A DNA stretch of 64,000 bases from Bispira polyomma (taxonomy: Eukaryota). How positions within the stretch are numbered: position 1 is the stretch's first letter; each line of letters starts with the position of its first letter. Under the pieces are notes generated by a model. It was not told where the DNA came from and made no database searches. It was given only the letters and a program-made list of their open reading frames with translations. Position numbers and translations under genes: made by a program. The stretch covers positions 33,914,001 through 33,978,000 of the forward strand of contig OZ287754.1 of the NCBI GenBank assembly GCA_965649765.1, written 5' to 3'. Below are positions 577 through 62,970 of this stretch, piece after piece.

Positions 577-2390
577 CCAACCTGTGTGGGGTAAACCAGT
601 TACTAGAAATTACCTCCAATGTGGCTCACTTGAACAATGGGCAGTGGCAACACACAAGGCTGTGAGTGATTGGGGTTGCCCCAATTATATGGGTGTGCGT
701 ATACCAGTACCATCTGAGTTAAATATTGGCGCTTGGCGGGAAGCATTTAAAGGGGATGGGGACACAAAACTCTGTGAATATCTCGAGTTCGGAATTTCCC
801 TTGACATAAGAGCTGAGAGTTTTAATTTTAACAGTGAAGTTAAAAACCATGACATTGCTTTAGAATTCCCTGAGAGCATGGATAAGTATTTTATCACTAA
901 AACACCTTCACAAGGCCATAGCAGGCCCATTCAAAGAAAACCCTTATAAGCAATTGCATTGTTTCCCTGTCATGACGTAGCCTGAAGACGATAACACCCG
1001 ACGTCTGATTGTTGACCTCTCGTGGCCCTATGACAACACATTTGTCAATAGTGTGGTGACAGATGGGGTGTACGATGGGCAAAGCTTTGTTCTAACCCTT
1101 CTGACTATAAACATGATATTGGCCCTACAGCAAAAATATATAAGCTGGATCTCTCACATGCTTTTAGGAACCCACGGATCGATCCGGGTGACTATAAGTA
1201 CACAGGTTTGCATTGGGGTGACAGTACATATATAGATTTAGCCGTCATGATGGGTTATAAGCAAGGTACGGCTATATGTGAGCGGGTCACATCATATTAA
1301 GAAAGCAATTCAGGATCTATGATCTGGTTGCCGTAGAAACCAGTGAAAAGGCAAAAGAATCATTTGACCAATTGTGCGGTTTGATTGAGCACCTAGGCCT
1401 CCCTATAAATCCAAAGAAAGTATTTTCCTCTGCAGAACAAGTTGTGTGTATGGAAATTATGGTTAACACTAGGACGGGCATGCTCAAAACACCTGAAGAT
1501 AAATTAGAGCAAATTAAGCTTATGTGTGAACAATAGAAGGGAAAAATCCGGTGTACTAGAAAAAGTTTGCAGTCTATACTTGGAAAATTGTTGCGTGTCT
1601 CCCGCTCGTCTGTTTTTAAATAAAATGTTAAGAATATTGAGGGAAACATACCCCAGCAAGAACATCACACTCACTAGAGAATTCAAAGCGGACATAAATT
1701 GGTTTAATGAATTTTCGGGGTCACTTAATGGGGTTGTAGAGATGCACCTAAAAAGTGGACCAGTGCATGACCTATATGTAGACCCTTCTCTGGTGGGCAT
1801 TGGGGCTATGTGGAGTAAAAATGTTCATGCTGCATCCCTCCCTGTCCAAAAACCCATGTGTTTTAGAATAGTGCATTTTGAAATGTGAAACGTCCTAATG
1901 GTGTTGCATGTATGGGGACATTGTCTCAAAAATTGTACTGTGATAATGGCTGTGGTGTGATAATGGAGCGGTAGTAGCAGGACTAAATTCTAGTCGCTTT
2001 CATGATCAAAACTTGGGTATCATGGCCCGTTCTATTTGGTTGGAAACAGCCAAATATAATATTAAACTTGACGTTGTGCATATAGCGGGAGTAAAAAATA
2101 TCTATGCAGAATATCTGTCCAGAATGTTAATTCCTGGTTATAACAATGAAAGAGTGCATGGTGAAGTTTCTAAAAAGAAATGGTGGGATGTTACCTACAG
2201 TCATTTTGTATTAAATACAGAACTTTAATTTACAATTTCAGGTTCTCTACTGCAAAAATACCTCACCAGTACAGCCCAAGCTAGGTTAGAAAATGCTTTG
2301 GCAACTAGAACAAAGCTAGCTTATGGCAACTGTTTAGGATATTATGTATTTTTAATTTCAATGACTTCAACCCTCCAAATTTGTTTCAAT
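577..2390 (+). mobile_element. Ngaro-type YR retrotransposon copy 1, left part: decayed RT, RNase H and YR N-terminus
   Basis: Frameshifted motifs PNYMGVRIPVPSELNIGAW, RRLIVDLSWP, KLDLSHAFRN, ARLFLNKML, DINWF, LYVDPSLVGIGA, IVHFEM, VVHIAGVKNIYAEYLSR; YR start ARLENALATRTKLAY. Confidence 0.85.
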
Positions 2391-11351: not shown

Positions 11352-11972
11352 GTAAGTATGTGTGTGATATAAGAAGTAACTTACTGATAGACCTTAACAG
11401 ATTAAAAATGTGTGTGGTATACCTAGTAACTGACTGATAGACATTAACAGAGTAAGAATGTGTGTGGTATAACAAGTAACTGACTGATAGACGGACCTCA
11501 ACAGACTAAGTATGTGCATGGTATAACAAGTAACTGACTGATAGACGGACCTCAACAGATTAAATATGTGCATGGTATAACAAGTAACTGACTGATAGAC
11601 GGACCTCAACAGACTAAATATGTGCATGGTATAACAAGTAACTGACTGATAGACGGACCTCAACAGACTAAGTATGTGCATGGTATAACAAGTAACTGAC
11701 TGATAGACGGACCTCAACAGACTAAGTATGTGCATGGTATAACAAGTAACTGACTGATAGACGGGCCTCAACAGATTAAATATGTGCATGGTATAACAAG
11801 TAATTGACTGATAGACGGACCTCAACCGACTAAATATGTTACATGGTATAACAAGTAACTGACTGATAGATGGACCTCAACAGATTAAATATGTGCATGG
11901 TATAACAAGTAACTGACTGATAGACGGACCTCAACCGACTAAGTATGTGCATGGTATAACAAGTAACTGATA
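11341..11972. repeat. Minisatellite of about 12 units of 50/54 bp starting at the exon/intron junction
   Basis: Unit ctcaacagactaagtatgtgcatggtataacaagtaactgactgatagacggac. Confidence 0.95.
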
Positions 11973-12538: not shown

Positions 12539-12815
12539 GTCAGTATCTACCTCTCACTACTTCAATCATAGCATAAGTATGCTCAAACTCGTCAGCTCTT
12601 AGGCCTACCCTGGTGAAAGCTTGTTAATAGACAGGTTATATCTTGATTATGTCTTATATATTGCTATATTAGCTATATAGTATCTGCTATAGCTGTCTTA
12701 TAGCCTTCTATAGTTAAAGGTCTGAGAAACACAAGAAAGTCTGTTATTTTTGCTATAGATAGTTTCCTGAAGTCCACCTGCTTTTCTTCACACCATCACT
12801 GAAGACAGCCCACTT

Positions 12816-14765: not shown

Positions 14766-15589
14766 AAATGGCTCTAGTTGATATTCTTTGTGGTTTAACA
14801 ATTCTCTCTGCCACTGCAGAAGTCAACTCTTGTTCTGTAAGTCTGGTATCCTAGAAACCATGCGTGAAGATTTAGAAAGGCTGGCTCTTGATGGAAGTTG
14901 TGAGACAGCGATTGTTTTAGTAACTTCTGTAAGGAAGTATTAGTAGGGGGATCTGTTGAGACAGTTCTATTAGGTCCCAGAACCAGGACATTTGTGGCCA
15001 ACCTGATGCTATGAATACTATTTGACAGTTGCATACAGTTCCACTGGGTAAGTAATTGTATTGCAATACAAAGAACATTCCCTGCAGCATTTTTAATCTC
15101 TTCTTAAACAACTTGTACGTATTTAACATCATGCAGAAGAGAAGTGTTGAATTTCCAAAAACCCTTGTCTCTTTTCGAATTTTAATTCATCAACAGCAAA
15201 GAATGATCAGTCTTGTATCCAGGTTTAATAAATTGCTTTCTTATAAGCCTGTATAGCCAGGCAATATAAATAAGGAAGACAACATTAATCCAGTGGGCCA
15301 TTATAATTTCCACGTTACATTTAAGTATTCTTACTCTGGTGTGCTATCACTATCTGTAAATTTTAAATTCGTTGTGCTTTAACTTGTGAAGGGAAACTTT
15401 ACCAGTCCATGCATTATCAGATATGCAAACACAATTCTTCAGTTCACTACAAGAACAAAAAATATTCCTGTGATGGCTGCCTTTAGTAAACACCTTAGCA
15501 ATATTGGGTAAACCTTGGTAGAATTTGGGTGGTTTTTCTTTTCATCTTTGATTTCCTGTACATTTTTTATCTTTATTTTGTTTTGTATT

Positions 15590-16379: not shown

Positions 16380-18120
16380 CTTAAGCATCTGACCATTATG
16401 CCAACTGAGGTCTTTGAGGTAAAAGTTGGTAAACGTATTTCGGAATTTCCAGTAAAATGCATTCGAAATTTCATCTAAGGAAATGCCACCTGTAAATGCC
16501 AAAGAATTCGCCATTGGGTGAATGTCATGTGCTTTGACTTGGAAAATTTGCTGTAACTCACTGTCTGACTTTTTTTAAGCCAAGAGGAAATCGTAACCTT
16601 AAAGATATCTTTGTTTTGGCCTCCATTATAGCTACACACAAGAGTTTCTTTTTCCCTTATGTGTTTGGTTCTACCTAAATAGTACTCCAAAGCTCTAACT
16701 GTGCAGTGACCTATTATCAACTAAACTGGACCTGGACCATCAGAAGCCAATTGCTTGTTTGCTAAAAAGGTTAGTGATGGTGTAAAAGTGATCTGAGACC
16801 AGTTTTCCTTATAACTCAATAAGGAATGGGTCTAGGAATGAATTTCACTCCTTCTTTCGCCAGAAGCCAAGGTAAAAAAGTTTTGAAGGTCAAAATCTTT
16901 AGAGAGGCCTTACCTAAAGGTTCAACAGGTGCCTTAATAAGTAAGGGAGAAACCAGTCGAAGCCCATTTAGGTATGGATCTATTACTGATACCTAAATCA
17001 TCTGCAGTTGTAGTTCTATAACCTGCAATGGTTGCAGTCTCTTTTCCTCAAACAAAATATTAGGGAAATTTGCTACATTTCAGTGATATCTGAGATGTCT
17101 ACCTTACCCTCTTCATACCACTTCCCAAAAATGGACGACCTTACCTTGTAGTTCTTTCTGGATGAAATTATCTGAAGCTCCTTAATTCTTTGAGCCATTT
17201 TATCTGAAAATTTCTGTGAATTTTCAGGGTTGACTGTAGGTGCCAAACATGAAATTCAAATACAAGTAGTTGTTGAATCTGCTGCTTCAACAAATTCTGC
17301 CATAACAGTAGCCTCATTGGTTGCTTTGTGGACAACTCTATGAGGTCCTAAAACCAAGGCATCCCTGGCCATCCTGGTGCAATAATGATAACCCTGCACC
17401 TGTAAGTATGACAGCCACAGGACAAAACACATAAGCATCCAGTCCATGAGATGTTTAACGCATCTATTTCCCATGCTTGACTGTCGGGGACAGGCGACAA
17501 ATACATTGGTTGATGCCACCGTTGGTTGATGCCAAGACCTGAGGATTCACAGACCATTCGGTCTGAATAATTTTGTCTCACCAATATCCGACATGTGCCA
17601 GGACATTTAAACTCCCTAGAATGTGTTTGTCTCTCATCTGGATTCCTCTGGCTTTCGTCCATGCAAGAATCCTGCAACTGAAAACACATTTCCATGGAAT
17701 GTGTGCCTTCCTCCTTGTTGACGTAAGAGACTACTGTGAAGTTGTCTGCGGAAATCAATAGGTTTCCGTTTAGAATATGTTTAGAATAGAATATGTTTTT
17801 GGAATGCTTTTAGTGTTGGAAACACTAAACACCGTAGATTATTTAGATGAGCCCCAGCCCTTCTCTAAAGCATCTGTAAGCAGAAGAAGATTCTACTCTT
17901 TCTGATGAAGTGGTGAACCCTTTAACAGATTTGGAAGCTTTGTCCACCATTCTAAATGTGACCTTGAAATATCCAGCGACTAGGGAAATTTCCAATTCAT
18001 CTTGAGATATCACTGGAATGGCCTCATGTGCAGACTACTCTGTGGTATTGTCTTCCCCATTGAAGCCATGCTCCCAATAAGGGACATTAACTTCCTTAGA
18101 GTTGTTGCACTGACCTTCAA
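16380..18120 (-). mobile_element. DIRS1-type YR retrotransposon remnant: RNase H, methyltransferase-like domain, YR
   Basis: LMSLIGSMAS, HMRPFQW, DNFTVVSYVNKEEGTHS, YLSPVPDSQAWEIDAL, IIIAPGWPGMPWF, CTVRALEYYLGRT, TISSWLK. Confidence 0.8.
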
Positions 18121-19439
18121 CATGGAAACTATTTTTTATCAATTTTCGGAAAGACTACCCAGTTTAGTAAATCAAACCAGTAAACTAGAAACTCGGTGTT
18201 TTGGGATGGTGTTAATTCAAAATATTTTAATTTATCACCCATACTATGCTCATTGGCCTGGTTAGGGTAATGCTATACTTTAGAATTGCAAGTCTGCATT
18301 GGCCAATGAGTTGAACGGTTCCAATAAATAGGTGGCGTTAGGAAATGGTAAGGGTATTTCGCTAACAAATTTACTCATCTTTATCTAAGACCATATCAGA
18401 GGGTAGTGTACAGATACTTGTGTATGCCTCAGTCACCATTTAACCTACAATTATATTATCTATATTACTGTAAAGCTTACAATCTCGAGAGATGTTTGAA
18501 AACGTCTTTTGTACAAAACAGAAAGTAAGTATCTTACGGGCGCCTCCCACTTTCACCTTGGCCTTGCGATTAACTCCATGTACCTTGCATGTATCTGCCG
18601 TGGTGAAAATATGTGTTCATCGCCAATCAAATCTGGTTTCTACTCGCGATCAGCCAGATCATATTATGTATAGAGAAAAGTATAACGATACAACTGCTGT
18701 GTCACTTTACAAAAATTAAGGTTTTTTTTAAATTTTCTTGTTGGGCATGGAAATCTACGCTTACCCAGGATTTCAGATGAAAATCACTGTGGGTTCAAAG
18801 TTTTATACCGCTTACATTGAGAGATGTTTCTGCGACTGGCTAATCGCCATGCACGCACGAGCATTTTGTAAGTCACTGAAGTTGGAGACAGGCATTAAAA
18901 ATGCTGCCTGTTAACTACAGCTTACTGGAGGATTTCGCAAGAGATACACTAAACAGCAAGTGATTTTAAAATTAAGAAAATTGTACGATAAATAATTCGA
19001 ATATTAATTAGTCCCCTAAATTTAGCGAAAATATGGCTTACATAGTGTCATTTTGCATAAGACCCATAAGGTCATTAAACAACCCAAGTTCAGGCTGTAT
19101 ATGAGTAGCATCTCGAATAACAAATCATGAGACAATAATAGGCCCAAAAGTTTAATATGTTTCAAAAATAGAACTATGTTTCTTTCACAGTTGTAATACT
19201 GCCTACCATTGTATCCCACATAACCATCAGATGCTGTGTCTCAAGAAATACATGTATATTGCAGTGTGTTATCAAATAATTGCAACAAAAATAATTGTTT
19301 GTTGGAAATGCATGGATTAGGATACAACTAAACAAAATAACGATTGAGATGTGTGGAATTTTAGAAGAACGTGATGTGTGATGATCTTATATTACTAATT
19401 GTTGGCGTTAACCCATTTGGTGTAATTTATGTTCTTTTT

Positions 19440-22342: not shown

Positions 22343-23272
22343 ATTTTAGATGTATACTTTTTGGAACTTCCACAGTAATGAAGTTAGTGCATTGTGTGGT
22401 GACTACTGCAAGCCATTTCAGACTCGATACTTGTGACCTTGGTGAATTATAATCCAAGCAAAAAGTTCTTATTTTGTAACCTAAAAGCTACACCTACAGA
22501 TTAAACCTCCCCAACACGTCCACCTTATTACCTTAAATATTAACTTATCGCTGATCTGGATGTTTATGTATGCTTTGGATATTGCAGCATAGGTTTAACT
22601 TCAATCACAAACAATATATACCCCTCATCATTGCCCAGTGTTCTCTGACAGAGCTGAACGTCTTACCAATCGAGTTTCCTTTGTAAGACCATCTCTGCGT
22701 GTTTCCCCAGAAGTAACTCCTGTGTACAGTTTCATTATTTCCGAGGAAGTCAATATATATATACGCAGAGATGGTCTTACAAAGGAAACTCGATTGGTAA
22801 GACGTTCAGCTCTGTCAGAGAACACTGGGCAATGATGAGGGGTTTATATTGTTTGTGATTGAAGTTAAACCTATGCTGCAATATCCAAAGCATACATAAA
22901 CATCCAGATCAGCGATAAGTTAATATTTAAGGTAATAAGGTGGACGTGTTGGGGAGGTTTAATCTGTAGGTGTAGCTTTTAGGTTACAAAATAAGAACTT
23001 TTTGCTTGGATTATAATTCACCAAGGTCACAAGTATCGAGTCTGAAATGGCTTGCAGTAGTCTAATCTACCACCACACAATGCACTAACTTCATCACTGT
23101 GGAAGTTCCAAAAAGTATACATCTAAAATGTATATATATATTTCCGAGGAAGTCTATATATATATATATATATATATATAGACTTCCTCGGAAATATATA
23201 TATACATTTTAGATGTATACTTTTTGGAACTTCCACAGTGATGAAGTTAGTGCATTGTGTGGTGGTAGATTA
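22343..23272. repeat. Long inverted repeat (arms 22343-22700 and 22763-23129) overlapping a perfect 210-bp palindrome (23063-23272) centred on (TA)13
   Basis: Direct reverse-complement comparison; mirror ORFs 22628-22825 and 22638-22835. Confidence 0.9.
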
Positions 23273-27966: not shown

Positions 27967-28765
27967 TTTTAATCAGTTTGTAAAAGATTGCTAGTGATAA
28001 CATAGTCATTCAACTTATATACTCCAAATGTGTCATTTCATTGTGTCCAAGGTCAAATAAGCAATGTCATGGAGAGGCACCGATCATGTACTCTCCATAA
28101 ATATTAAGATTTTGCAAGGTTTCATTTCATTTAGTTGTCTCTATGAGGAATAGTATAATGGCTTGACATATAACCCTCTAATTGGCACACTTTAACAGCT
28201 GTCAACCTGTATGTAACATTTGGTTGATAATCATTCCCATGCTTCTTTTTGCATTACCTTTATCGGTTCAATATTGAGATTCTATTTATGTATTGGAACA
28301 ACAGGCCGTTTTAGTCACGTTGTTGTGTTACTTGGTAAAAATATTCTAATGTCATTTCACATTTCTTCATTTTACCTAAATTATTACCTTTAAGATAATA
28401 CTTCATTTAAAAGTAAGAATTATCATCTCTACCAATGAATTCATCTCAAAGCCTAAACATCAAATTGAGCACTTTAATATCAAAATATATACTTCGGTGA
28501 GTATAATTTTAAATATGAAAACATATACCAAAGTGCATTCTTATGAAGCTCTTTAAGTGTCTACATGAGCATTGAGCAGTCTGATTGGACCCACAACCAA
28601 ACCCAAGAACAGCTTATATACAGTGTGCTAGTGTGTGTGTAACTCCATCGAGTTGGATTACGACTCAGTCATAATGGACCAGACCAAATTATGAACTATT
28701 CTGCCAAAAGGTATTGGCTAATCACAGCGCGCTGCTGAGTATATAAACGGCAGTGTGCCATAGTT

Positions 28766-37530: not shown

Positions 37531-38325
37531 AGCCATTTAGGTTTTGTTTCTGTAGCTAAGGACGCCTTGCAGAGGGGGTGAATGAATCCTATGATTCCCG
37601 TGATCATACTCAGTATAAAGAGATTATTGACAGAGTTACAAAATCAGGGAGGGTCCCCAAGTACATAGGTGAGTGCATTGTACTGCACTCAGAATTTTAC
37701 TTACAGTATTGGGCTGACAATATTAAAGGCTTTTATGATCAGTCTTTGAGGGACTTTGTCAGGTTTGGCTTCCCACTGGGGATAAATCACAAAGAAGTCA
37801 TTCAAAAGAATCACTCCTCGGCTAGGCAATACCCCCAGGCGGTGGACAAATACTTAGACACTGAAATGGCTCATTAAGCCATTATATGCCTTTCTATGAC
37901 CATTGCCATGATAACTTCATTTATGCCCCACTGATGATGAAACCTAAGGACCTTGATCAACGTAGAGTGATCTTAGATCTGACATTTGGAGACAATTCGG
38001 TCAATAACGCCACATGCAGAAACCAATACGAGGGAAACCCTTACAAGCTAAAGTTACCGACATTGGATGAGTTAATTCCACATCTCATGAGACTAGGTGA
38101 AAACGCGAGACTAATAAAAGTTGACATATCTCGCGCATTTAGGAACATGCACATTGATCCTAGGGATGCAGTCCATTTGGGGATTCATTGGAAAGGACAA
38201 TACTTTTTATATCAGAGTCTCGCATTTGGGGCCGTCAATGGCATGGCCATCTTTCAAAGGATTTCTGACTTTATTAGATACCTCATGAACAAACAGTGTT
38301 TCAAGGTGTACAACTATATAGACGA

Positions 38326-38476
38326 GGGAAAGGTGATAGTTCCTTACTGTGGGCCGCTTGTTTCAGTGCAGAACCTTGATCAACTGTATGCAATGTTTCC
38401 TCCAGTATTTCCAACTACCCGTCCCAATATAACCTAAACAGGTACTAGAGTGGACGTTAAATATCCCAATTCAAAA
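38326..38476 (+). mobile_element. 5'-truncated SINE copy inserted at the RT YIDD motif of Ngaro copy 2
   Basis: Close match to 56674-56826 in the same orientation, although the two host Ngaro elements are in opposite orientations. Confidence 0.75.
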
Positions 38477-40419
38477 TATTGCAGTTACAGTCATTACTGG
38501 GTAAGCTATTATATGTGCCCAGGTGTGCCTTGAATAGGCTACTTGGGTTGTAAAGATAGCATAGATATGATAAAGACTTTGTGCCGGATGAAGGTTCTTA
38601 CCTAGACATGACTTGGTTTGTTAGGTTCCTCCCGCAATTTAATGGGGTGGTGTTCTTTAAACAAGATCGGGAACAGCAGCAGGTTTTTGTAGATGCGACT
38701 TTGTAGGGGATGGGGGGGGGGGGTCTGGCGTGATCACGTCTATACTGTGGCAATACCACAGTACCTGGTTAATACCTAGACCATTTCTCAGTTTGAGTTG
38801 TACAACGTGTTAGTTGCAGTGAGGTTATGGGCCCACAAATGGAAAAATAAACCCATTTGCATAAGGTGTCATAATGCTGCTGCAGTCCAGGTCATTAATA
38901 ACGGGAGTACCCGTGACCCTTTTATGAGTCTGTGTATAAGGATAAGGGTGGTGTGCAGCAGTAATCAATATAGATATAACTGTTAAACACATAGCAGGTA
39001 GAGAAAATGTGTTGGCAGATAGACTATCCAGATCTAGCCATGAGTAGGTCATAAGGGATTATAGTTATATGGTGGTCAAAGATATTACCAATCATATGTT
39101 ACTTTTACATTTGAATATTTGGGGATCCCACAACACATAAAGCCTCTGCTGACAGCAGTTTAGGACTTATTTGGCCTTTCTCATTCATAACGAGATCTCG
39201 TTTCCCACAAGTGTCGTGGGTGTGTTCCTAACAGCACAAGCAATGACCTACCGAGTAATTAACAATTATGTATCTGGTAGTTTGTTCCACCATGTATGGC
39301 ATGAATATGTTGGGAACGTGTGGCTGTCTCTCGTTTCCTCAGAGCTGTCAAAATTACTTGGACTAGGGTTACAAATAAGAAAGGGTCCTTTTCATTGAAA
39401 AATATTAGGCATATATCGGAGGCTTCTGCAGTATTTGAAAGTACGGCAGTTTATAGGACGGCTTTCCTCAGTGCATTTTATGGCTTTCTGAGGATTTCCG
39501 ATGTGGCCCCAGTCAAAGCAGGGGATTTTGATACAGAGAGGTATATATATCTCAAGGGGGGATGTGGTGTTAGCACACCCGGGAGTTCAGTTAACGTTGA
39601 GATGAGCAAACAACATGCAGGAACAACATCTGTCACATGTAGTTATTTTACCAAGAGTGAGAAACCTGTTGATGTGTCCCGTACAGGCTTTATAAGCATT
39701 ATTATCAACAAAGAAACTTCCTTTTTCGGACCCTTTATTTGTGGATGATAGTTACCATTTGATAACTCAATGTTGAGACGGCGTTTGGCATCAATTCTAA
39801 GAATAATTGAGATCCTGTTGCAGGGACATGGGTTTCACACCTTAAGGCTGCTACTTTAGTTTTTGATATCCAATGTCTCGATGGACAATATCCGCTTGCA
39901 TGGAGTATGGAAAAATAATGCTGTATGGGTATATATTAAACAAAATTCACAGCAAGCACATTTGTTGCACTTTCTCGAACATTGTTGATTCTACCTTCCA
40001 AAGGCTACTGTTATAAATGCTTTTTGCGTTGGGGTTTGTTTTGTAATTTTATATGTTGTCAACAGTATTCTGATTGTGTGTCAGTAATAGTATTTTTCAT
40101 GTGAAAGAGTGCTAATAAATGGTAGTAGCCCAACATATATGACTAATTTCTGGCTTTATGACTGTGTGTGTAACTCCATCGAGTTGGATTATGACCAGAC
40201 CAAAGATTCTGCTAATCACAATTCTGCCAAAAGGTATTGGCCAATCACAGCGCGCTGCTGAGTATATAAACGGCAGCGCGGCCTGTTTAACTTTATTATT
40301 TCTAATATTTTTAGCATTATTTTAAAAATATTTTTCATGTGATAGAGTGCTAATAAATGGTAGTAGCCCAACATATTTGACTAATTTCTAGCTTTAGGAC
40401 TGATGTCAAATTCATTTTT

Positions 40420-45203: not shown

Positions 45204-48200
45204 TTGCAAGTATCAAAGGACCGAGCACTTTATTATTCAGAGGTTATGTCCCCCAGAAAACAATACGTTTGTAATAAATGCGGAACAAGTCATGTGAAAC
45301 TAATTGATGATGAATGTACCCATAGTGGTAATGAGGACACTGATAGTGATATGCAGAACTCTGTGGCAAGTGATGGTGTAACTGCTGCCGACGTAAATTT
45401 GCAAATTTTAGCTGAACTGCGTGCGTTAAGTGGTCGGATGACCCAGGTCGAGCAGCAAGTTAATCACAGTCCACATGGAGCTCAGGCCTCAATGGCGTCG
45501 AGTCTGGGGAGTGCAACCCCACTGGTGCAACAGGCGCAGACCCCAACCCAAGAACTACTGATGCCCTCCTTCCAGACACTGCGTTCGTCCGACACCCTCC
45601 AGACAGCAGTTGACTCCCGACCTAAAGAGCTAATGGCCATCAATGAGTTAGGTATGTGTAAATCTCAAAGAGGTGGTACAGACACGGTATGGGTGAAGAA
45701 TAAGGTGCCCGGCCGCAGAATGTTATTTTTGGGGGGAAAGAACAGATCGAGGGTATCCTATAATTCACTTTCCATGGCCCAGTGGGTCTCTGGCTTCGCC
45801 TGCATTGCTAGGGACGAGAACAATGTAGAAATTAAAAATCAAATGTTTGACTATCTTACCGACCTCATGGAGGATGCTCATGATTTTTCTTGGGCCTCAG
45901 CCAAAGGCAGTCATGCCGTGGTGCTTTGTAAAATGAAGGAGGGTAAGGTAACCTGGGGATATTCCCACAAGTTGGACAGAATCAGGCGGGCACATGCCCA
46001 AAGGGTTGTAACCCAAACCTCTAGTAATAATTTTCAAAATAATCCCAAGAAAGGTCAGGAAAAATCCATCCATGTAGGTAGTTTCAGAAAGGTATGTGCC
46101 CTCAAAAAGGGGACCACGAAACCAAAGGTATTGCCTACAGCCATGTATGTAGTCACTGTGCTCAAAATGGCCGTCATTACCCACACCCTGCTAAAGACTG
46201 CAGAAAGACTCCGTTAAAAAACGAATAGGGCACTGCAGAAATACAGTGCCAAACCATGTATCTGCCAGAACTAAATCAGTTATCAAAGATTCTGTTGGTA
46301 ATTCTGTAAATGTATCAAAGGTGTTTTATACTAGAACTGTTTACAATAGTAGTAATTGTGATCAAGGTAGCACATATTGGAGGGCTGACTGGGCGAGATT
46401 TGATAAAAAGTACTATGCAGAAATTGTTAAAAGAAATGTCACCTCCAGATCTGCCGACAAAAGGTCTTGTGTAAATAGTATTAATGTTCAACAATTGTGT
46501 GTAAATACCCATGCCAAATGTACTCCATGTGTAGATAAAAACCAGTTTTCAGGTACCACAACAAAGGCAAACCTTGGGAGCAGAAACGAAAGTACAATTG
46601 TTACAAATAATACCCCAAATTCTAGCAACCTCACAGCCAACAAAGGTTATAGCTATGTCAAAGGTTATTCTTCCAAAAGGGCCAAGCCCATCCCTAAAGT
46701 GCGACATTTGTCTTCACACCTTTATTAAAACCATTTATGAGGTGAGACATACAAAATATCATGATCGCAAAGGTATTAACAAGGAAAAATTTCCTCCAGA
46801 GGTGTGACTTTCAATTTTACACCCTCAGACAATGGGTAATAAGTCTAAGCAAGAGGTGCCAAAATCATTTCCTCACCTTCCACATCAATGGGTCCTACAC
46901 ACTCACAATAGGTTTGCTCTATTAGATCAAAATGATACTGAACAAAGGGTCTTGACTGGGGTCAGTGTAAGTACAAATACCCAAGACACAGACAACCTGG
47001 GTTCGGGTCCAAAACTACAATACCTAGTACAAGGGGTAGTAAGGATGACAAATATGATTAAGAATTACAAGCAAAACCAAAGATTAGGGAAGTTATCTAA
47101 CAAGCTTATCTTGAACCCCAGTTTCAGCACTGGGACAGTCAAACTACAGATAAATATGGTTTCATTCCCTTGAACCTATGGTTCCTGAAACAGTCAGGCG
47201 TATAAAGTCAAACAAGTTGCTACTGCAATTACATTCGGTTTTCAAAAATTAAAATTGCCCTATTTATTTGGGTGCTCAAATTGAAATTAAATCTGAATTG
47301 AAACCGGATGTGTGGCAGAAATATTTAGTTGACTATGGGGACTAGTAGCTCCCCTTTTTGATAAGATACAGATTTCCTCTGGACATTAATCCAGGTAGTA
47401 AGCTCTCCCACACTTTAAATAATCACTCATCTGCTACACAGTATCCAGATGATGTAAAAGCTTATCTGAGAGAAGAGACTGAGCTAGGTGCCATGTTAGG
47501 TCCATTTGACAAAATACATATAAAAAACCTTCACATCTCTCCGTTTATGACCAGGGAGAAGCCAGGTGGGGTGCATAATTGATCTGAGCTTCCCACATGG
47601 TAATTCGGTAAATTCAGCTATATCTAAAGACAAGTATCTGAAAACTTAATTTGCTTTGACATTGCCAACTATAGATACAATTACCAGTAAAAAATGTCGC
47701 GTGGAACCCATTTATATAAAATTGATGTCATTCGGGTGTTCCGTCACGTAAAGATGGACCTAGCTGACTACAACCTTTTAGGCCTAAAACTAGATCAGTA
47801 CTATGTAGATTCGTGCTTGCCGTTTGGTTTTTAACATGGAAGCGCCATTTTTCAGTGTTTAAGCGACGCCGTCAGGTATATTATGAAATGTCACAAACTA
47901 TATAGACGACGTGATTGGATACAGTGACGTCACAGACAGTAAACACTCTTTTGACATGCTACATGAATTGTTGCAAGAATTAGGTTTCATCCTCAGCCAG
48001 AAAAAGCTCGTTCCCCCCCAGTATCACAGTCATGTGTCTTTCGCTATTAGTTAATACTGTTGACCTCACTGTCTCTCTTCTTGACAAAAAGCTCGTTGAA
48101 ATTAATGCTCTTGTCCAGAAATGGCATACCAGAAGTAGTTATAACAAAAGGGAACTCCAATCACTACTAGGCAAATTGCTCTATGTCTCTAAATGTGTGC

Positions 48201-51200
48201 ATGTCTCCCGGGCATTTCTAAACCGGATGCTCGACGTCCTCAGATCTGTAGGCGCCAACCAAAAAGTGAATCTTACGCCTGAATTTCACCGGGACATAAA
48301 CTGGTTCAAAAAATTTCTACCCAAATTTAATGGTAAAGCCTTTTTTTGAACATAAACCTGCTACAGACTGTATTCAATTCGATGCCTGCCTTCAGGGCAT
48401 GGGGGACGTTGTAATAACGAAGTATATCAACTTCAAACCATCTGGGATACCTAGACCTTACAATAGTCCACCTTGAAATGCTCAACATCTTGGTGGCTAT
48501 CAGGCTATGGAAATCAGTGTGCAGGTAAAAGATTGTTCTTACAATGTGACAACGCCGCAGTGGTGACAATACTCAATTCAGGCAAAACTAAAGATTTTAC
48601 TCTGGCAGCAATTGCCAGGAACATTTTTATGGAGGTAGCCTCCCAGGATATTAGTCTCAAGACCATTCACATACTCGTTAAACTTAATACAGTGTCTGAC
48701 CTTCTTTCTAGATGGCATCTCACAGCTAACAATAAGGATAAGTTACGAGACCTTCTTCCAAATCCTAAGTGGTTAGAAGTCAATAATAGAATGTTAGGCA
48801 TAGACTGGTCTATTTCAATTCCAGACGTACTCTCACAGTTAAGAAAGATTGCATCACAAGCCTCACAAAGATCTCACCAGACCTTCAGAACAGCCACTGA
48901 CAGGGCCCACACAAATATGTTTCGGATTTTCTTGGCTTACTGTAGTTTTGCTCAGGTCAGGCCTCAGAACATTTCACCTCTCATTATCTTGGCCTTCTTA
49001 GAAGTGCTTGTAGTTAACCATTTAGCTTTCTGCAATTAAAGCTAAAATGGCCCTATATGGCCTCAATGTAGATTTGGGGACCCACGTATAAAGTATTACC
49101 AAAAAGCCCTGGTTTTTAATAGCCCCTTCAGGGCTAAAATTAAAGCTATCATTGACATATCCCTCCTTCATCAAATTATACAGACATGTGATAGCATGTA
49201 CATGCGGCATGTGTTCAAAGCCCTTTATTTAATTGCATTCTTTTCTTTTCTCAGAATTTCTAACCCAGTTCCACATGCTGTATCTCAATTCTCACCTCCA
49301 GTTCAGTTGGCTGGGGGGGGGGGGGGGTCGTGCTATTTGCCCCCTCCCCCCCCCGGCCTCCATTTAATCATAAAATGGACCAAAACCCTCTAATCTTCAA
49401 ATGTAGCCAAAGTCTTAAAGATACCAGCCTTAAATGGCTCCCCTCTCTGTCCAGTTACCTCCACAAGGGCCTTGTTAGCCATTACTCCTGGGCATAAAAA
49501 TTCACCTCTTTTTCAGTGTAAGAAAGATGACAAATGGCTTCCCCTAACTGATACTAAGGTTATGGCAAATTTGACACAAATCCTCAGGCGCCTGGGCCTG
49601 CAGCACTCTGACATTTCTTTCCACACCTTTCGACGTTCAGGGGCCACACTGGCTTTTAACAATAACGTTCCCATTCAAGACATTCAAAGACATGGCATCT
49701 AGACATCGGACTATGTGTGGAAAGGTGGCACTTACCTTCAAGGCCCTCCTTTCCTCTACTACCTCCTAATTGGGCTTTGGGGATTTTATTTACATATTCA
49801 TATACAATAAATATATTTAAATGTTAAAGCTAAATCTTTTGGGCCACCTTAGCACCTTATTCAATCAAAACTCTCATACATATATCTTTACAATCTATTT
49901 GGCAACCTTAAACAAATCAAAGGTTACCTCAAATTTTATACTTTAACTCAATTTTAGTTAACCCTAAATGATTTCAAGTAAGGACTACCCTCAAAATTTT
50001 AAAACTTTAACTAACTTTTAGTTCACCCTAACTTCCAGGTTTTAATTCTTTACCTCAGACTTTCCCTACTACTCCCTTTACAGTTTTCAGCTATTCGTCC
50101 GTCTGTGGAGTGTTGCCTGCAGTCCCTGGAGCTCCTGATGCCTCTCTTTACACCTTGGCGCAGAGGGGGGTGGGGGGTGGGGGGTGGGGGGGGGGGCTGG
50201 GGGCTGTGGGCCCACGAGTTATGCATTACTGTTGGCTTTCACAGTACTCGATCCTTGCGGGTCTTCAGGGGCTTCGGGCGACGTATCTCCCCCCCCCCCT
50301 TTTCTAGGTAACACCAGGGTTCCTATGGGTCCACACTTACTGTAGGTAGCTGATTGCTGTTTAGACTGTTTCCCTATGGTTGTCATAAATTGTGTTTCAT
50401 AATGTTGTTTTCAGGGTTTACCCTATTATACTTTAAACTAATGTTGTTTACTTAATACAAAAGTAACCTTATGCTAAGGCATCTCCTTGTTAGACGGGAT
50501 GCGCAACGTGCATGTTATGGTAAATATATTAAGGTAGTGGAAGTATAAATGTTATGTAACTGTGTATCAATTTGCCTTATATGTCCTCGCGTAACTTTAG
50601 TTGACGTGTATTATTTTACAGTGATTATTGTTCTTTTGCTCATATAGTTCATGCAGGTGCATGTTGTGTAACGATGTGATCATGTGTTAAACTGTAAGCA
50701 TGTAGTTTCAGGCATACTGCATCCATGCGCAGCTATGGCTCCTCCAAGAATGAACTCTCACATGTCATGGTCTCCTCCTGGATGACAAGATCAACTCGAT
50801 TTCAATTTACATTATTGTCGATATGCATGTTTTCACAGACCATGGTATTGTATATGCTAGGGGTGTAAGGCTCAGTGAGGTTCTAGTTGCTCTCTTGGAC
50901 TGTAATTCGAGTAACTCCGGTTTTTAGGGTTTTAGCTAGAACCTAGGTTTTAACTTCGATTTTACCCTTTTTGGGGGATTTTATTTACATATTCATATAC
51001 AATAAATATATTTCCATGTTAAAGATAAATCTTTTGGACCACCTTAGCACCTTATTCAATTAAACTCTTATACATATATCTTTACAATCTATTTGGCAAC
51101 CTTAAACAAATCTAAGGTTACCTCAAACTTTATACTTTAACTCAATTTTAGGTAACCCTAACTGCTTTCAAGTAAGGGCTACCCTCTAAATTTCAAAACT

Positions 51201-51235
51201 TTAACTAACTTTTAGTTCACCCTAACTTCTAGGTT
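45204..51235 (+). mobile_element. Ngaro-type YR retrotransposon copy 3, most complete coding region: ORF1, RT, RNase H, YR, B1-A2-B2 end
   Basis: ORF1 from ATG 45246 (CNKCGTSH; QWVSGF; C-terminal C-C-H/C-C-H-C after a frameshift). RT ~47200-48350 (SPFMTREKP, CLPFG, NYIDD, LQSLLGKL), RNase H 48350-48815, YR 48825-49760 (FFSFLRISN, KWTKT, CPV, FHTFRRSGAT). Direct repeat 49777-50041 / 50974-51235. Confidence 0.92.
46216..46250 (+). promoter_or_regulatory. Putative -1 ribosomal frameshift signal, ORF1 to ORF2
   Basis: A_AAA_AAC in phase with the ORF1 C-terminal frame, 6-nt spacer, stem GGCACTG/CAGTGCC; the -1 frame runs into ORF 46246-46728. Confidence 0.65.
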
Positions 51236-51342: not shown

Positions 51343-53854
51343 AATGTTTGTATGTAAATAAAACTTCTAGTCATAACAATTAAACTAATATCCCCAACCT
51401 ACCTCTTTTCATTTTCCTGTGTTACTCACCACCTCCAAGATTACAGGGTAGGGTACTGGCAAGCTCACTAATACTGTGCTTTGGCGGAAAGTGGGTACAA
51501 CCATTTACTTCAAATTAACTTGGCTTTCTCCTGAGCTAATAGGGATCAACTGGTTGTCTTATATGATCATGAAATTCATGTACACGTACTTGCCACATAT
51601 AGGTGTTTTACAATAAAACATTTAGGCCATCGTACCATGTTTGAGTTTTAAAGGTCAAGTAAAAGCTAGATGTTTTTGACCTTTGAAGTTAAGAGTGAAG
51701 TTTTTGGTTTGAGGAGGTAGTTTGAAGATGGAAGTTTAAAAGTTGTACAAATATATGCTGTTTGAAGTAATCTATTTACAATTTTTACAACTGTACAGAA
51801 TTTTGTAAATATTTGATTTTGGCTATAGTCCCTAGATTTGAAAATCACCAATACTGACAAAACAATTAACACAGGTTACGCCATGACTGGATGTGTAAGA
51901 GTCAAAATTCTAATTTTAATGTCCAGCCAATACAAAGAAACTGTTGACCAATTATTCGGATATGCAACTTTCATACTTGATTCATTATGGCTTCCCCTTA
52001 GATTTCAATGAAAATAAGCTGATTAGTATTAGAAACACAGTTCAGTCAAATCGTTCATGACTAGGGAAAAGCCGGATGCCCCATGAAGGTGCATTATCAT
52101 AGATCTAAGTTTGCCGCATGGTAATTCTATTAACTTTCCTATACAGAATGACAAATATTTAGATACTCCTTTTATACTCACACTTCTCACAGCGGATGAC
52201 ATCACAAACAAAAGTTTTAAACTAGGTAAAAGAAGTCATGCATTTCAGCACATCATATTAGATCCGGCAAATTACAAGCCCTAGTGCAAAAAATGTGATC
52301 AGTATTTTATTGTCTCCTATTTGGGCACAGGCACGGAATCATCATTTTTAGTGACTTAGCAATGCTGTGAGGTTCATTATTTCAAGCAGAGATCCGGATG
52401 TCATTGAGTTTGGGTCCCCATGAAAAGTTTTCAAATTTGTTTACACTCCTACAGTAACTAGGTTTCAACCAGTGTCATATGATGCAGAAAAAATGCGATA
52501 ATAAGCTGCTAATACAGAAAAAAAAACCCAAAAGTCATAAGGAATATGGTGCTTAACATTTGTAAGTGAACAATATCAATATTACATAAGTCATTCGGTA
52601 CATTAATAACATTGCTGATCATACACAGCCCCAAAATCATAAAAACATAAATTTGATGTTTAGTAGAATGTGTAGGTGTAAAAACAATTATACTATTAAA
52701 TAAAATGCAATCTAACCCTGATTAGGAGCTCATCCAAGCATAACTAACATTCTGGTAACAAACGAGCGTGCTTGACGCACAAACTTACTAATGTACAATA
52801 ATTTACCAAGTAAACATTGAAGTTGATGTTTAGTAGCATTAGACGTAGCACACGAAGACTCACAGAAAGATTTAATAGCTAATAATTTATCACTAGTAAT
52901 GCTAATACTACCTGCTCACACATTAAATTGTATACCAAGGCAGGTATAACATTTGCAGGAAGCTCTAATCTGTTAACTGGTAAGCCCAGTTCATTCAACA
53001 AAAATAATAAGTAATTATCAGCAGCCATGAATTTATGATCAGACTCATGAATACCAATGAGGTTTTCACAGTTTTTCCAGATAATGAAGCCCTAACGGGC
53101 CAAAGATACCTAATCACCCGTCTGGTCAATGAGAAAACACTGTTAAGAAAGACCTGTTTTTAATGTGAGTATTGACTGCTCCATCAGAAGACCAAGACAA
53201 ATCTACAATTACACATATATTGTCTAAAGTAGGTTTAGGTTTAGTAAATATAGGGAAAGTATGTAAATTATCTAAGGGGCTAGAATTATATGGCCCCTCC
53301 ATGACAGAATGTGCAGTCTCAATAGCAATAAATGAGCAACATGAGATTTATACGCTTGAGCAGGGAGATCATTATAATCATTAGAATGTAAATGATCAGA
53401 ATTACCCATACCCAAAGTAAACCTGAATAATAACAATTGGAGCAGCTGACGGTCTAGATAATCAGCCAAGTATTATGTCCAGTTAGAAATACTTATATCA
53501 GATTTTTGGAAAAATGAAATTATAACTGTTAAAGCATGAGGTATTTCATTACAGTCAGTAACACAAGGTAATAAACACTTGTGAATAGGCATAATAACTA
53601 AGTTTATGTTGCATAATGAAAAAAAATTAGTATGCATAATACAAAAAAACACGGAGCCAGATACAGAAAAGCAAAATCCCATATAACATTGTGAGGCCAT
53701 AACATGAAAATACAGACAAACACTGGAAAAAATATGAAACAATAGCATTGAACTCAGTGAGCCAGTATAAAGATTGTACGTTTAAACCAAGAAGTCATTC
53801 TTCAGAAAAATATTCCCAATAACATTGAACATTATAAGACTTGTGTATGAAATA

Positions 53855-54225: not shown

Positions 54226-57200
54226 TACATACGGGATTTAGAAAACCCAAGTGAGAAGTCATTCATTGGGGTGTTTATTAAAATTCTAAGTTTTGTTAGG
54301 ATGTATATCAGTACCAAATTTGCCCCTTGCTATCCACATAAAAAACTAAAACAATAAAACAGAAAGACATTTATACTGCAAGAGCCCAGATGGGATGCCT
54401 TTTATAGTAGTTGAAATATTTTGATTGGCTGGTCTGGTCCACTTCTGACTGATACATAATTAGCACCGTGCATAATTATCTGCACAGTCGCGCCCTATCA
54501 GTGATGTTCTACATACGGGATTTGGGAAAACCAAATGAGAAGTTATTTAGTCAACAGGTTTATTAAAATTCTAACAAAAGTTAGGATGGACTGCCCCCAA
54601 AGTTAAAAAAGCAATATTTTAAAAAGTAGAATTCATGAGAGTTTGGAAAGTAGAAGGGACCAGGCGAGATTGTGCAGATTCACGTTGTATATTTGGCCAC
54701 ACGGCATTACTTTTTCCCCATACACCATAAAGTTTAATGTTATTCAGAGGAACATACGCTATGGTAGCAGCTGAACACCGAAACGTGTGAAATCTGTGAC
54801 CTTAAAAAGCCATAACCATTGTTTCAAATAGGCAGCATTTCTGCACTAGCCGCCCAAGTCATGGCCATATTTAACATGGGGACATAAGGCCTGGGCACAT
54901 CTACAATAAACTATACAAATACATATTATCAGCTGCTATATATTCATGAATTTCCTTACTAAATATCTCATGTAATGTCTTCTGCCCTGACCGTGACAAG
55001 GCATCTGCCTGTACATTTAATTTTCCCGCTATGTAATTTACTGTCAAATATTTTATTATATTTTGTAACTTTTGACAAAATATTTTCGAATACATAGTTC
55101 CATAAAACTATCCGGTGTAGCACCAGTAGTTTTTGGACTGCCGCCTCATTGTGACACCTGACACACACACATTCCTGTCCATTAAATATGGTTCCCAAAT
55201 CCTAAGGGAAATTAAAATATTATAAAGTTCATATTGGCTGATTGTATAGGTGTTTATCAAATCTCAGACAGGAACAGTGTAAACTCGGTCTCCCCAGATC
55301 CTCCCCATTCTAAGTATCGTTAAATCAAAAAAAAATTGCTGTTGTTCTTGCACCCGGTTAATGAAGACCGAAACGTTGAATCTTTGAAAAAAATTAAAAA
55401 AACAAGCAATGCAAAAGATAGAAACCTTGATCTGGATTAAAATTTTTGTGATCCCTTTGTTCTCTCAATTTTGCCAATAAACGATTCATGAAAACTTGTA
55501 AACCAGGGACACACGGTGGAGTATATAAAAGTTTGCCTAACAGTGATTGCAATTGAGTTATTGAAACCACGTCCAGCAAAATACTCTACCGACAAATATC
55601 TTGAATCTCGCCTATTTTTACTTTACAAATACTAAAGATGGTCAGACATTTGTTGGAGCCACTAGAATTATACTTTATTCAGGCTTATGGGAAATCCGAG
55701 ACCTCGAATAATTTCTAGCAATGCTTGAAAAGCTTCCTTTGCCCTATACTCATGTATGCAAGCATATATGTCATTGATGTAGTTATGAACTATGAAACCA
55801 TGTTCACTCATTAAAAATCCGTTAATCTCTGAAAAATTGCCGTGCCATTAACAGCACCAAATTATTATTATTATGAATTTTTAACGCACTTTATTGATGC
55901 TAGGCATCTTCTGAAGCGTAACAGCAGATTCATTGATTCTAGATTTTGATCCAGATATTACTGATCGTCTTATTTCATGCCCAAATAGACTGCATCTGCA
56001 AGATTGATTTTCAGATTTCTGAAGGCCCATGAAATGTCAGCTTTGAACAGTCGTGCATTTTGGCCATACTATTTGAGAGATGGTATTAAAGAATTCAAAT
56101 TTTGCAAATGCAATATGAAAGGGTTTCCGAAATATGTGTGTTTGGTTACTGAACCTTCACCATATGAAAGGTCCAAAATAACTCTTTTGGCATGGTCATT
56201 AAAGGAGCCCAAGTGTACTGTTTGTGGGGTATATGGGGAAAGGGCCCATATGGGCATTATGCTTTCATTAACTATATGTTTTTTAATGTCAGCAGGGAAA
56301 GCTAATGCTGAGGAATGATCATTGGTGGTTTGTTTGCTCTTGTTCAAACCTAATTGGAACCCATATTATAAAAGGCTTAATAATAGTGTCTGTCTGTCCA
56401 TTCAGCTCCTCTTGAATGCTGTCCTGCTGTAACTGAACTAACACTAAACTAGTGGTTGTCCCACAAACATTAAAACCTTTAAGTCTTTCAAGTTGCCATA
56501 AGGGCCACAACTGTGCATTCTTTGTACAACAAGCAGACTGGCCTGAATACACCCACGACACCCCTGTTGTGCCCCCTGCCCCCCAGGTACACCCGTCTTG
56601 TGCATGTGCTTCATATCGCCTCGGGTCTCTCACCTCTGGGCGGCATGAGTTCGACCTCTGTCAATGCCTATGTGGGAAAGGTGGTAGTTCCTTACTGTGG
56701 GCCGCTGGTTTCAGTGCAGAACCTTGATCAACTCTATGCAGTGTTTCCTCCAGCGTCTCTAACCACCCGTCCCAATATAACCTAAACAGGTACTAGAGTG
56801 GACGTTAAATATCCCAATTCCAAATAAATTCATATTGCCCCGGTTATTAGGAAGAGATGCGGGTTGGTCCGTCATCTGGTGGGTTTTAGTTTGTTCGCCG
56901 TGGTTAAAATGTACTCGCGTATCATCACCCCTGTCTGTTGTGTCAAAAGTTTTAGACTGATTGGCATGTGCCCACAAACTAAAGTCAAATTGAGATTGCC
57001 CAGCCAGTGAGCAAGCTATATTCCTCTGGTTAGAAGAATGATGAATGTCCCCGTAAAGTGGGGGACCATAACCAAAATTTTTATCATTACTGCACTGAGT
57101 GGGGTCGACCTTGACATTGTCATATAATTACTTATAGTTTGAACTTTAAGAAGAACAATATTTCCATAAAAAACGTCCTCTTTTTGTTGTTCTACTGTGC

Positions 57201-58070
57201 CTCTGTATGCTGATTATCTTGCTTCAATGTTTTTGCACAGAAGGGACATACGTGTTTGAAGTAGGTGGCCCCTGTAGAGCCGTGGTGATCCTGGCTGTGT
57301 ATACAGCTGTCCTCGTTGAAATACTTACAAACCACCCTCTTTGGCTTGGTGTTAGCTTCTGTATTGTTAGATTTGGGTTTAGGTGCCATTGTTACTGACC
57401 CACCAAGACAGTTGACTGTGAATACGTCAACATGTTATCTGTAAAAACTGCTGCAGTGACCCACTTGACTGCCTCCTTGACCATATGCATGGAAACAGCA
57501 AATGCTCCTCTGGCTATTGTCCAGTAGAGGTTTTCGAAAACGTCACTGTTTTCATCAGCTCATTAAGTATATTACATGTCACCGTATTTTCCTGTGTCTC
57601 CTGGGCATTCTTTAGTACCCATATCACAAATTATCATCATGAAAGTCATGTATTTTCTTGATGGTCCTACCAAGCATGCCTCGTTAGGCCAGCTCAGGGC
57701 TGGGTTAACATTGGGGGTGTCTGTGGTATTGTATCGGCTACTCTTTTGTGCCAGGTGATACCTTGAACAAATTCGGTGGAACTCACAACTCCATCACGAC
57801 TCCTTTTGTGCCGGGTGTTACCTTGAATAAATTCCTGTGGAACTCATGACTCCGTCACTCCATCTGTTCCTCTACCAGGCATCAGACCACGGGATTCTGC
57901 CTTAGGCCTTCCAGTGAGTCTGCTGCAGCATATGCTGGCGTCGCATGTAGAGGCACTACTTGTGACTGTGGTGCAAGTCCCCCATACATCAGAGTCTGAA
58001 TCTGTCCTGTCCCCGGGTTTGGCATAATCTGATGTGTTGTCATCAGAGCTGAGAATTGGAGCTGTGTATT
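54226..58070 (-). mobile_element. Ngaro-type YR retrotransposon copy 4 (decayed, YR mostly deleted) with B1-A2-B2 end
   Basis: ORF1 remnant (SWPNE; VCKYFNEDSCIHSQDH..KHVCPFC), RT (KRVILDLSYG, KADIS, NYIND, LQSLLGKLLY), RNase H (IAGKLNVQADALSR), YR tail (FHTFR). Repeat 54511-54588 / 54226-54303. Confidence 0.85.
56621..56828 (+). mobile_element. tRNA-derived SINE (5'-truncated) nested in Ngaro copy 4
   Basis: ctctcacctctg..GAGTTCGACCTC (box B-like); 3' end aatataacctaa..gacgttaaa; flanked by ttcatat(c/t)gcc direct repeats at 56610 and 56829. Confidence 0.75.
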
Positions 58071-61489: not shown

Positions 61490-62970
61490 AGATTGTAAGT
61501 TAAAAGCATGAGTTTAAGTCCATGCCTGAGTTTAAGATGTTGACTTAAGGTTATTTAAGATTACAAAAAACTTGAAGTGACGTATGGTTACTAATCTTAT
61601 TACTTAATTTACGATTACATTACAGTTTAAGTTACATAAGGTTAAGGTAGCCTTAAATTTTGACTAATAGTACATATAAGTGATATATAGTGTATATAAA
61701 TGCCATTTGGGTTTATTGTCTAAACTAAAAAGCAACCAACATCAACTAGGAGGTAGAAGAGGAAGACTGATGTAGTGAATTTTGAAAGGCCAACGCCACA
61801 TGGTCAGAGAAATCATGATCTTGGCTTGTGTCGTGCCATACGCATTCTGAGGTCCAAGTACCATGACTTTGGATATTTTGAATGGAAACATTATTGTTAA
61901 AGGCCCATGTGGCTCCAAAACGTCTAGAAGAATGAAATGTGACGTTAAAATCTTGGAAACCAAGATCTTTAAGAATGATAGCGAGGTTGTGTCTGACTTT
62001 GGTGTCAGTCATAGCAAGCCATGTGGCCAAGCTTTTGCATTGAAACAGAGGTGAGTTCCTCTGACCAGGTGTGATGGCAAACAAATTGGAAATGGCAGCT
62101 ACTGGACACAGTGGGGAACCACCAAGTGAGGGTATTTTTATAAGTCTAACAGTATCCCTGCTCTGTAATGTCTTACTCCATTTAATCAATAGGTCAAGAC
62201 CAGGAGGTGATATATGATGTCACTTCTGGCTAAGTGTTGTAGGGGTGAGTAAGTAGCATTAGAGTGAGGAACCAGATTTGATATTCTCAAGAATGAAAAA
62301 TAGGCAAAGAGGTAAACGGCCTTGTAGACCTGACCCATATACATGAACTCACATTTTTAGATAATTTGTATCAGCAAAGAAATGTCAATGGTGGATTTTA
62401 GTTGTACCTGAATGTGTTTGTGGAAAGCAATTGCCTTTTGAAAATACTTTACTCTAGGGTCCATGAAGGCTGAGGCGTTTAGGCCATATAGGGCTCACTT
62501 TGCCTTGATTGCAGTCAAATAATTTCCTATGCCTGAATGTGATCTGTTGTTTTCAACTAAGAGCTCTAGGAAAGCTAAGAGAACAGTAGCATTGACTGGT
62601 TGTATTACATATTTGTAAACACACAGTAAGATAGAAAGTTTAGTGTAATTGTAAGATTTTTGAGTGGAGGGTTTGAAGGATGTATGAGCCCTTTGAGCTG
62701 CTCTGCCATCTGCCTTCGTCAGCTAGGCGTTTGTACCTAGGAAATACAATCAAATATTCCAGTCAAGGTGGGTGGATTCCACCCCTAAAGCTAACCAAAT
62801 CAGTTCTACTATTAATTTCCTTAATTTATTTGACAGTTCAGTGGTTATTGCCTATCTGGATAGCAAGACTGCTACCTCATTATTTTTACCCGAACCATAT
62901 ACTACTCCTATGTCAATATCTGCCCTGGTAGCTTCCAACTGGATGTTTCGGCCTATGGCTGAAAATAGCG
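61490..62970 (-). mobile_element. Ngaro-type YR retrotransposon copy 5, 3' part: RNase H end, YR, AT-rich tail
   Basis: FSFLRISNL, IKWSKTLQ, LCPVAA, FHSSRRFGATWAF, HGTWTSECVW; RNase H end LDWNI*. Confidence 0.9.

Follow-up and report, generated by a model that had tools for sequence, protein, structure and literature searches.

How do Ngaro-type retrotransposons make their tyrosine recombinase (YR), whose frame lies behind gag and the reverse transcriptase/RNase H (RT/RNase H) frame? Poulter and Butler 2015, whose account is quoted in PMC13003380, have YR overlapping RT/RNase H in the -1 frame and consider programmed frameshifting its probable mode of synthesis; according to a passage of PMC3783388, in all groups fungal YR ORFs either share the frame of RT-RH or are frameshifted against it. 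For the window, by which we mean the whole 64,000-nt stretch of Bispira polyomma DNA that was analysed, the original prediction was a different one, namely that a spliced mRNA joins the N-terminus of Gag to the recombinase. Here, we follow this prediction through the copies in the window and through their relatives in metagenomes, given below with L numbers.

A cluster of decayed Ngaro-type elements

The window contains at least five decayed YR retrotransposons, which we call copies 1 to 5 (Table 1). A pol profile built from relatives matches all five of them, while Pfam recognizes RVT_1 in copy 2 (E 2e-4) and, above the cut-off, in the relatives P0173 and L005, and gives a weak match to RVT_3 in copy 3 (E 0.0097). 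The recombinase domain PF00589 is found in the YR of copy 3 below the cut-off (E 5e-4) and in the relative P0010 above it. As expected of Ngaro, YR lies downstream of RT/RNase H on the same strand. The RNase H frame ends ca. 35 residues past the DxLSR motif in 11 elements, and Pfam finds no methyltransferase domain after RNase H in the pol of P0173 or L005. Complete split direct repeats of the form A1 ... B1 A2 B2 are present in copy 2 and in the relative L015, and copy 3 has B1 and B2 with no match for a 5' A repeat. The first frame, ORF1, is judged to be Gag-like by its position and its C-terminal Cys/His finger; Pfam finds nothing in ORF1 of copy 3 or P0123 and a weak zf-CCHC match in L015 (E 0.039). 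In copy 3, ORF1 comprises an N-terminal Cys/His knuckle, a long helix, a helical core and the C-terminal finger, and it is broken by a frameshift near 46050. With four Ngaro features found, we class the elements by these features as decayed Ngaro-type tyrosine-recombinase retrotransposons of the order DIRS. The order of gag, RT/RNase H and YR, the absent methyltransferase, the split direct repeats (in full in copy 2 and L015) and an optional SGNH hydrolase (here in L009) are all shared with Ngaro as portrayed in passages of PMC9210276, PMC3783388, PMC4157794 and PMC8547959. The family is of high copy number and was seen across three sequence-run contig sets; none of the joints listed for these contigs runs from 45651 to 48825, which carries no weight for or against splicing. 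Mollusca is the commonest phylum in two of the four Atlas clusters listed, based on few records.

Table 1. Positions of element parts and of observed or predicted expression signals in the window.
Feature	Position	Strand	Remark
Copy 1 RT/RNase H	731-2225	+	pol profile built from relatives
Copy 1 acceptor	2220..2241	+	exon start 2242; 13 nt past RNase H stop TAA
Copy 2 split repeats	28632-28753 / 40163-40276 (A); 40085-40164 / 40323-40402		self-comparison of window
Copy 2 RT/RNase H	37707-39080	+	pol profile built from relatives
Copy 2 position homologous to acceptor	39101..39122	+	TGG replaces YAG; no acceptor scores there
Copy 3 gag-like ORF1	45246..46228	+	49 homologues; profile match 45252-46052 and 46043-46222
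Copy 3 predicted phase-1 donor in gag, TAG/GTATGT	45649..45657	+	Gly of ELG-MCKSQRGG
Copy 3 predicted GT-AG intron	45652..48824	+	3,173 nt, with gag core, RT and RNase H; inferred
Copy 3 A AAA AAC heptamer at gag end	46216..46222	+	followed by stem-loop; predicted -1 frameshift into pol
Copy 3 RT/RNase H	47310-48817	+	decayed; pol profile built from relatives
Copy 3 pyrimidine tract and CAG acceptor	48803..48824	+	exon start 48825, phase 1
Copy 3 tyrosine recombinase frame	48825..49723	+	YR homology; four in-frame stops, local frameshift
Copy 3 repeat B1	49776..50041	+	93.6% identity to 50971-51235
Copy 3 repeat B2	50971..51235	+	partner of B1
Copy 4 RT/RNase H	56383-54949	-	pol profile built from relatives
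Copy 4 acceptor	54901..54922	-	exon start 54900; its TAG doubles as RNase H stop
Copy 4 donor-like AAG/GTAACA in decayed ORF1	57816..57824	-	frame too broken for independent phase
Copy 5 RT/RNase H	62965-62750	-	pol profile built from relatives
Copy 5 acceptor	62737..62758	-	exon start 62736; after RNase H stop TGA

Several further features of the window belong to these elements or to their neighborhood. The A repeats of copy 2 contain CCAAT and TATA boxes, and two LINE-like elements on the minus strand, at ~29.0-32.7 kb and 36.3-37.5 kb, separate its A1 from RT, a stretch in which a profile search found no gag. The 930-nt spacer between the B repeats of copy 3 (50042-50970) has no match 5' of the element, and a strong-looking acceptor motif within it ends at 50083. 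Fragments of YR or RT/RNase H at 8046-8246 (+), 17803-18135 (-), 51935-52278 (+) and 52706-53484 (-) are remnants of at least three more elements. There are also CR1/L2-like LINE copies that are 96-97% alike (6169-7558, 9136-9500 and 12815-14850), a palindromic repeat (22343-23129) and tandem arrays (9779-10446 and 11333-11970).

No conserved start codon and no fixed frame for the recombinase

The YR of copy 3, with its stops written as X, served as the query for a search that returned 331 homologues, and an alignment of 43 of them led to 23 metagenome loci. The YR N-terminus is present in 18 of these loci, of which 11 were scored and the others set aside, i.e., the near-copies of L008 (L007, L010, L013, L014 and L015) together with L018 and L009. 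Identity in YR among the scored loci is mostly 25-45%. Searches of viral and prokaryote collections for such loci found none.

Just as had been proposed from the window, no conserved in-frame ATG opens the YR frame. A Met at position 0 is seen in a single one of the 11 loci; three others have their first Met at 9, 34 and 35 after the acceptor, and seven have none within 40 codons. In L011, an ATG immediately follows the AG of the acceptor. In copy 3, the first Met is 30 codons into the frame.

Nor is YR tied to the frame of RNase H. Across the seven relatives with an intact RNase H end, its stop lies 24-312 nt upstream of the acceptor, and YR is found in each of the three frames. In six of them the RNase H frame ends 3-293 nt before YR opens, and an overlap, of 4 nt, exists only in the seventh (L005), so that the -1-frame overlap of the review's model is mostly absent here. 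Two of the seven (L004 and L011) have YR in the frame of RNase H and five in another one, and in L004 two more stops separate YR from the RNase H stop. Within the window, YR and RNase H are in one frame in copies 1, 3 and 5 and not in copy 4, as first described, and likewise not in copy 2; copy 3 has no stop in between (TCA).

These observations bear directly on the possibility that YR is translated from unspliced RNA as a Pol-YR protein, either by a -1 frameshift as in the quoted proposal or with the ribosome reading past the RNase H stop. The shared frame in copies 1, 3 and 5, L004 and L011 would suit this route, copy 3 would not even have a stop to overcome, and two single-member gene calls (P0172 and P0173) run from RNase H into YR; yet the gap between the frames, the five relatives with YR in a different frame and the extra stops of L004 all speak against it, and it would leave the pyrimidine tract, the phase and the donor described below unexplained. 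Judging from the arrangement of the frames, the -1 frameshift is excluded for these families because YR mostly has no overlap with RNase H and all three frames occur. Read-through, which had been named as the alternative to splicing, is likewise excluded as a general route and fails in six of the seven relatives, while it is geometrically possible in copies 1, 3 and 5 and in L011. We therefore regard translation as Pol-YR as very unlikely for these elements, though the subfamily to which copies 1, 3 and 5 belong could use it as a secondary path, or vertebrate Ngaro whose frames truly overlap could use it as their main one.

A probable phase-1 acceptor at the start of the recombinase

Acceptor-like sites were found at the predicted coordinates of copies 1, 3, 4 and 5, all in phase 1 and at the start of YR homology, with each of them weak when taken alone. 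Counted from position 1 of a YR profile derived from relatives, copies 1, 3 and 5 have their sites at +7, +4 and +4 nt, all in phase 1. Copy 4 has lost the middle of YR, and its frame is placed solely by likeness to the start of copy 2 (DVPRPYVPML / GIPQHIKPLL). In copies 2 and 4, which represent a second type, the acceptor position falls where the RNase H frame ends, and the suspected loss of the acceptor in copy 2 is seen as TGG/ at 39123 where copy 4 reads TAG/ (the slash marks the splice junction). The cited site is the top acceptor of its 165-nt stretch in three of the four copies and the second in copy 3. However, 14-35% of 770 stretches drawn at random from the window attain such scores (3.1-5.1), and for this reason the window alone is suggestive and does not prove the acceptors; it is the relatives that make the case significant.

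In all 11 scored loci, the best acceptor between -120 and +45 nt of the YR start is in phase 1, compared to 33 of 105 windows taken from pol and YR as controls, which also have lower scores than the YR start (P 2e-5). The 11 loci collapse into 8 lineages at below 55% identity, for which the chance expectation would be (1/3)^8 = 1.5e-4. Since the acceptor score was handmade after the sites had been seen, three plain pyrimidine-count scores at three window sizes are given for comparison; with these, phase 1 is recovered in 6-11 of the 11 loci vs 24-35% of controls, a result that includes ties containing phase 1 under two of the scores. Of the loci left unscored, L009 (with only 11 nt upstream) reads TTTGTTTTCAG/AA and is in phase 1, and in L015 and L018 the homologous site is in phase 2 to the anchor and 1-2 nt off that of their sister copies, which we read as indels. 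A branch-point-like YTRAY is present in only 5 of the 11 loci.

The proteins predicted from relatives carry a trace of the same site. Among 268 YR proteins, 45 gene calls extend upstream, and 37 of these show a junction pattern (N-Y-A, G-N-N) made of the residues expected from translation through the pyrimidine tract; the same pattern occurs in 166 of 1442 background 9-mers (11.5%). On the acceptor side, both position and phase are kept in the 8 lineages.

A recombinase that starts on its own, by an internal promoter or by a leaky or non-AUG start, with splice-like motifs arising by chance in an AT-rich spacer, could account for the ATG directly after the AG in L011, for the many YR gene calls that begin at profile positions 6-12 and for the modest score of any single site in the window. 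It is countered by the seven loci with no Met in 40 codons, by the constant phase, which a chance AG would not hold, and by the GC-rich L008 family, which still has a C-rich tract with CTAAC upstream. We consider an independent start exceedingly improbable and use of the acceptor before YR very likely.

A predicted phase-1 donor in gag

The donor proposed for copy 3, TTAG/GTATGT at 45651/45652, is confirmed to be in phase 1, with 406 nt from the ATG at 45246 to position 45651, and it tops the 38 GT sites before the gag core. Readable gag DNA is available for five elements (copy 3, L002, L005, L021 and L015), and in all five the best GT of the stretch from the frame start to the core motif is in phase 1 and sits 18-47 codons ahead of that motif. 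In the same order, these donors read TTAG/GTATGT, ACAC/GTAAGT, TCAG/GTAATA, TCTG/GTAAGT and TCTG/GTGAGT. Their scores are moderate (3.8-6.7), and phase 1 accounts for 28-50% of the GT sites in the respective gag stretches. Copy 4 has a donor-like CAAG/GTAACA in the corresponding part of its ORF1, which the original prediction did not mention; this motif (57821) is duplicated at ~57761 (minus strand) by a 60-nt tandem repeat.

At the protein level, 46 of the 49 Gag homologues cover the donor site and 45 of these have Gly there, though the 49 form only 5 groups at 60% identity, probably from few assemblies, and are not 45 independent cases. The residue after this Gly is K in 13, R in 15, T in 10, M in 5 and N in 2, so that K, R, M or T follows in 43 of 45, compared to 27% after any Gly and 0-26% when five further conserved Gly columns are taken. 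These four are precisely the residues encoded by A-N-G codons, the codon type imposed by A at position +3 and G at position +5 of a donor. Exchange among them is not chemically conservative, but K or R after the Gly could also reflect a constraint on the protein instead of a donor. An AlphaFold model of Gag (mean pLDDT 76.6) places the junction Gly 142 between a helix at 122-140 and the core that begins at ~163. According to this model, the predicted splice keeps the Cys/His knuckle and the helices at 50-79 and 122-140 and drops the helical core together with the C-terminal finger. Fold searches with the model gave nothing clear (best Z 5.1).

The acceptor might be used with another donor, be it in a leader exon upstream of gag, later in gag or at the end of pol, the last of which would again give Pol-YR. 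Stronger GT sites do exist further down gag in copy 3, L002 and L015, but they differ in place and phase, and for the final 80 codons of pol in 11 elements the top phase-1 donor never exceeds a score of 2.8 and is found at no shared place. As to a leader exon, a weak phase-1 AG (score 1.8) lies 5 nt before the gag ATG of copy 3, whereas gag has its own ATG and is open across the internal donor. Over five elements, the best acceptor before the gag ATG scores -0.6 to 3.5 with phases 0, 0, 0, 1 and 1, and at the pol start of six loci it scores 0.1-3.9 with mixed phases. Neither place thus has a strong or phase-consistent acceptor for a leader-exon layout. Use of another donor thus appears unlikely to us, and we infer that the gag donor is paired with the YR acceptor.

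A probable spliced GagN-YR message

The conserved acceptor, the phase-1 donor in gag, the lack of a conserved ATG and the free spacing and frame of YR argue for the spliced GagN-YR message of the original prediction, which the comparison of sequences thereby supports. We conclude that YR is probably translated from a spliced RNA that joins the first ~135-200 residues of Gag to the whole recombinase, and we regard this reading as a whole as likely. Unspliced RNA would serve both as genome and as the message for Gag, with translation running straight through the donor. Pol would come from the same unspliced RNA, either via a -1 frameshift at A AAA AAC with its stem or via read-through of UGA, according to the family, and removal of a 2.0-3.2 kb intron with gag core, RT and RNase H would give GagN-YR. 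Guessing from the anatomy of the fusion, the Gag N-terminus may recruit the recombinase to the Gag particle, the nucleic acid of the element or its cDNA.

The gag ends carry motifs that we take to be recoding signals, namely A AAA AAC with a stem and TGA CTA. The stem after the heptamer has z-scores of -2.5 in copy 3 and -3.5 in L002 vs mononucleotide shuffles, and the last two residues are KN in 27 of the 34 Gag homologues that are complete. TGA CTA is found in L015, L014, L007 and L021 and an in-frame TGA in L005, and the gene call P0171 runs from gag into the pol frame that the predicted -1 frameshift of copy 3 would enter. The Gag-to-Pol signal thus varies by family (window 46216-46300, L002:1057, L015:1877 and L021:1635).

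No fused Gag-YR protein was found among the 120 listed of 331 YR homologues of near length, in the best 150 of 13,491 representatives or in Atlas. Such a protein is expected to be missing because the homologues with a source are ENA or Logan gene calls. The two long YR homologues are both Pol-YR, and lengths of 526-622 aa fall outside both length searches.

Two relatives show additional features downstream of YR. L009 has a GDSL/SGNH hydrolase ORF after YR (L009:1042-1692; PF13472, E 5e-12) with a pyrimidine tract and a phase-1 TAG in front and no Met in its first 60 codons, and this hydrolase is possibly a second spliced product; by eye, no such acceptor was found at the similar downstream ORFs of L019 and L021. 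L001:1100-1991 runs from the YR stop through a terminal repeat and TATA box to the start of gag, the layout that a collapsed assembly or a circle junction would give.

Relation to known systems and implications

Close precedents exist in other retroelements, and what we propose is a variant of a known splicing strategy. Foamy viruses make pol from a spliced RNA. Plant Ty1/Copia elements produce a spliced RNA for a short Gag (PMC5580714). As the elements studied here would, both Copia and foamy virus set protein ratios by splicing and keep an unspliced genome, but Copia splices for Gag and foamy virus for Pol, and the integrase is part of Pol in both. Closer in layout is the idefix subclade of errantiviruses, which, in the portion of bioRxiv 10.1101/2023.08.03.551782 consulted, splices env to a Gag peptide, so that there, as proposed here, the third ORF is expressed from a spliced subgenomic RNA with a piece of Gag attached. 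The product in errantiviruses is an envelope protein, however, whereas here it would be an integrating enzyme joined to ~40% of Gag.

For Ngaro, the passages of PMC9210276, PMC3783388, PMC4157794 and PMC8547959 that describe these elements make no mention of splicing, and the term "splic" has no occurrence in PMC9210276, PMC3783388 or PMC8547959. No statement on splicing of YR was found in the consulted portions of PMC3783388, PMC9210276, PMC8547959, PMC6681497, PMC3266345, PMC4157794, PMC7192593, PMC2632668, PMC9341512, PMC12477816 and PMC6431247. [quoted passage not shown] The review model quoted in PMC13003380 derives a -1 frameshift from an overlap that the invertebrate-type elements examined here mostly do not have. 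As far as sequence comparison goes, the splice-site pattern around YR is a real conserved feature that contradicts the quoted frameshift model for this family.

We tentatively extend this reading, at somewhat less than even odds, to animal Ngaro in general. A single N-terminal exon of Gag would be spliced to the recombinase and, where present, to the SGNH hydrolase, so that one RNA would combine unspliced reading, recoding and alternative splicing, with the Gag N-terminus as a packaging tag for cargo enzymes. If this is true, the genuine N-terminal third would be missing from all annotated Ngaro recombinases. For the lineages compared here, a conserved splice would replace the frameshift proposal, and the true enzyme would be a Gag-tagged recombinase, which would account for both the missing start codon and the free frame and is relevant to anyone who annotates or assays Ngaro recombinases.
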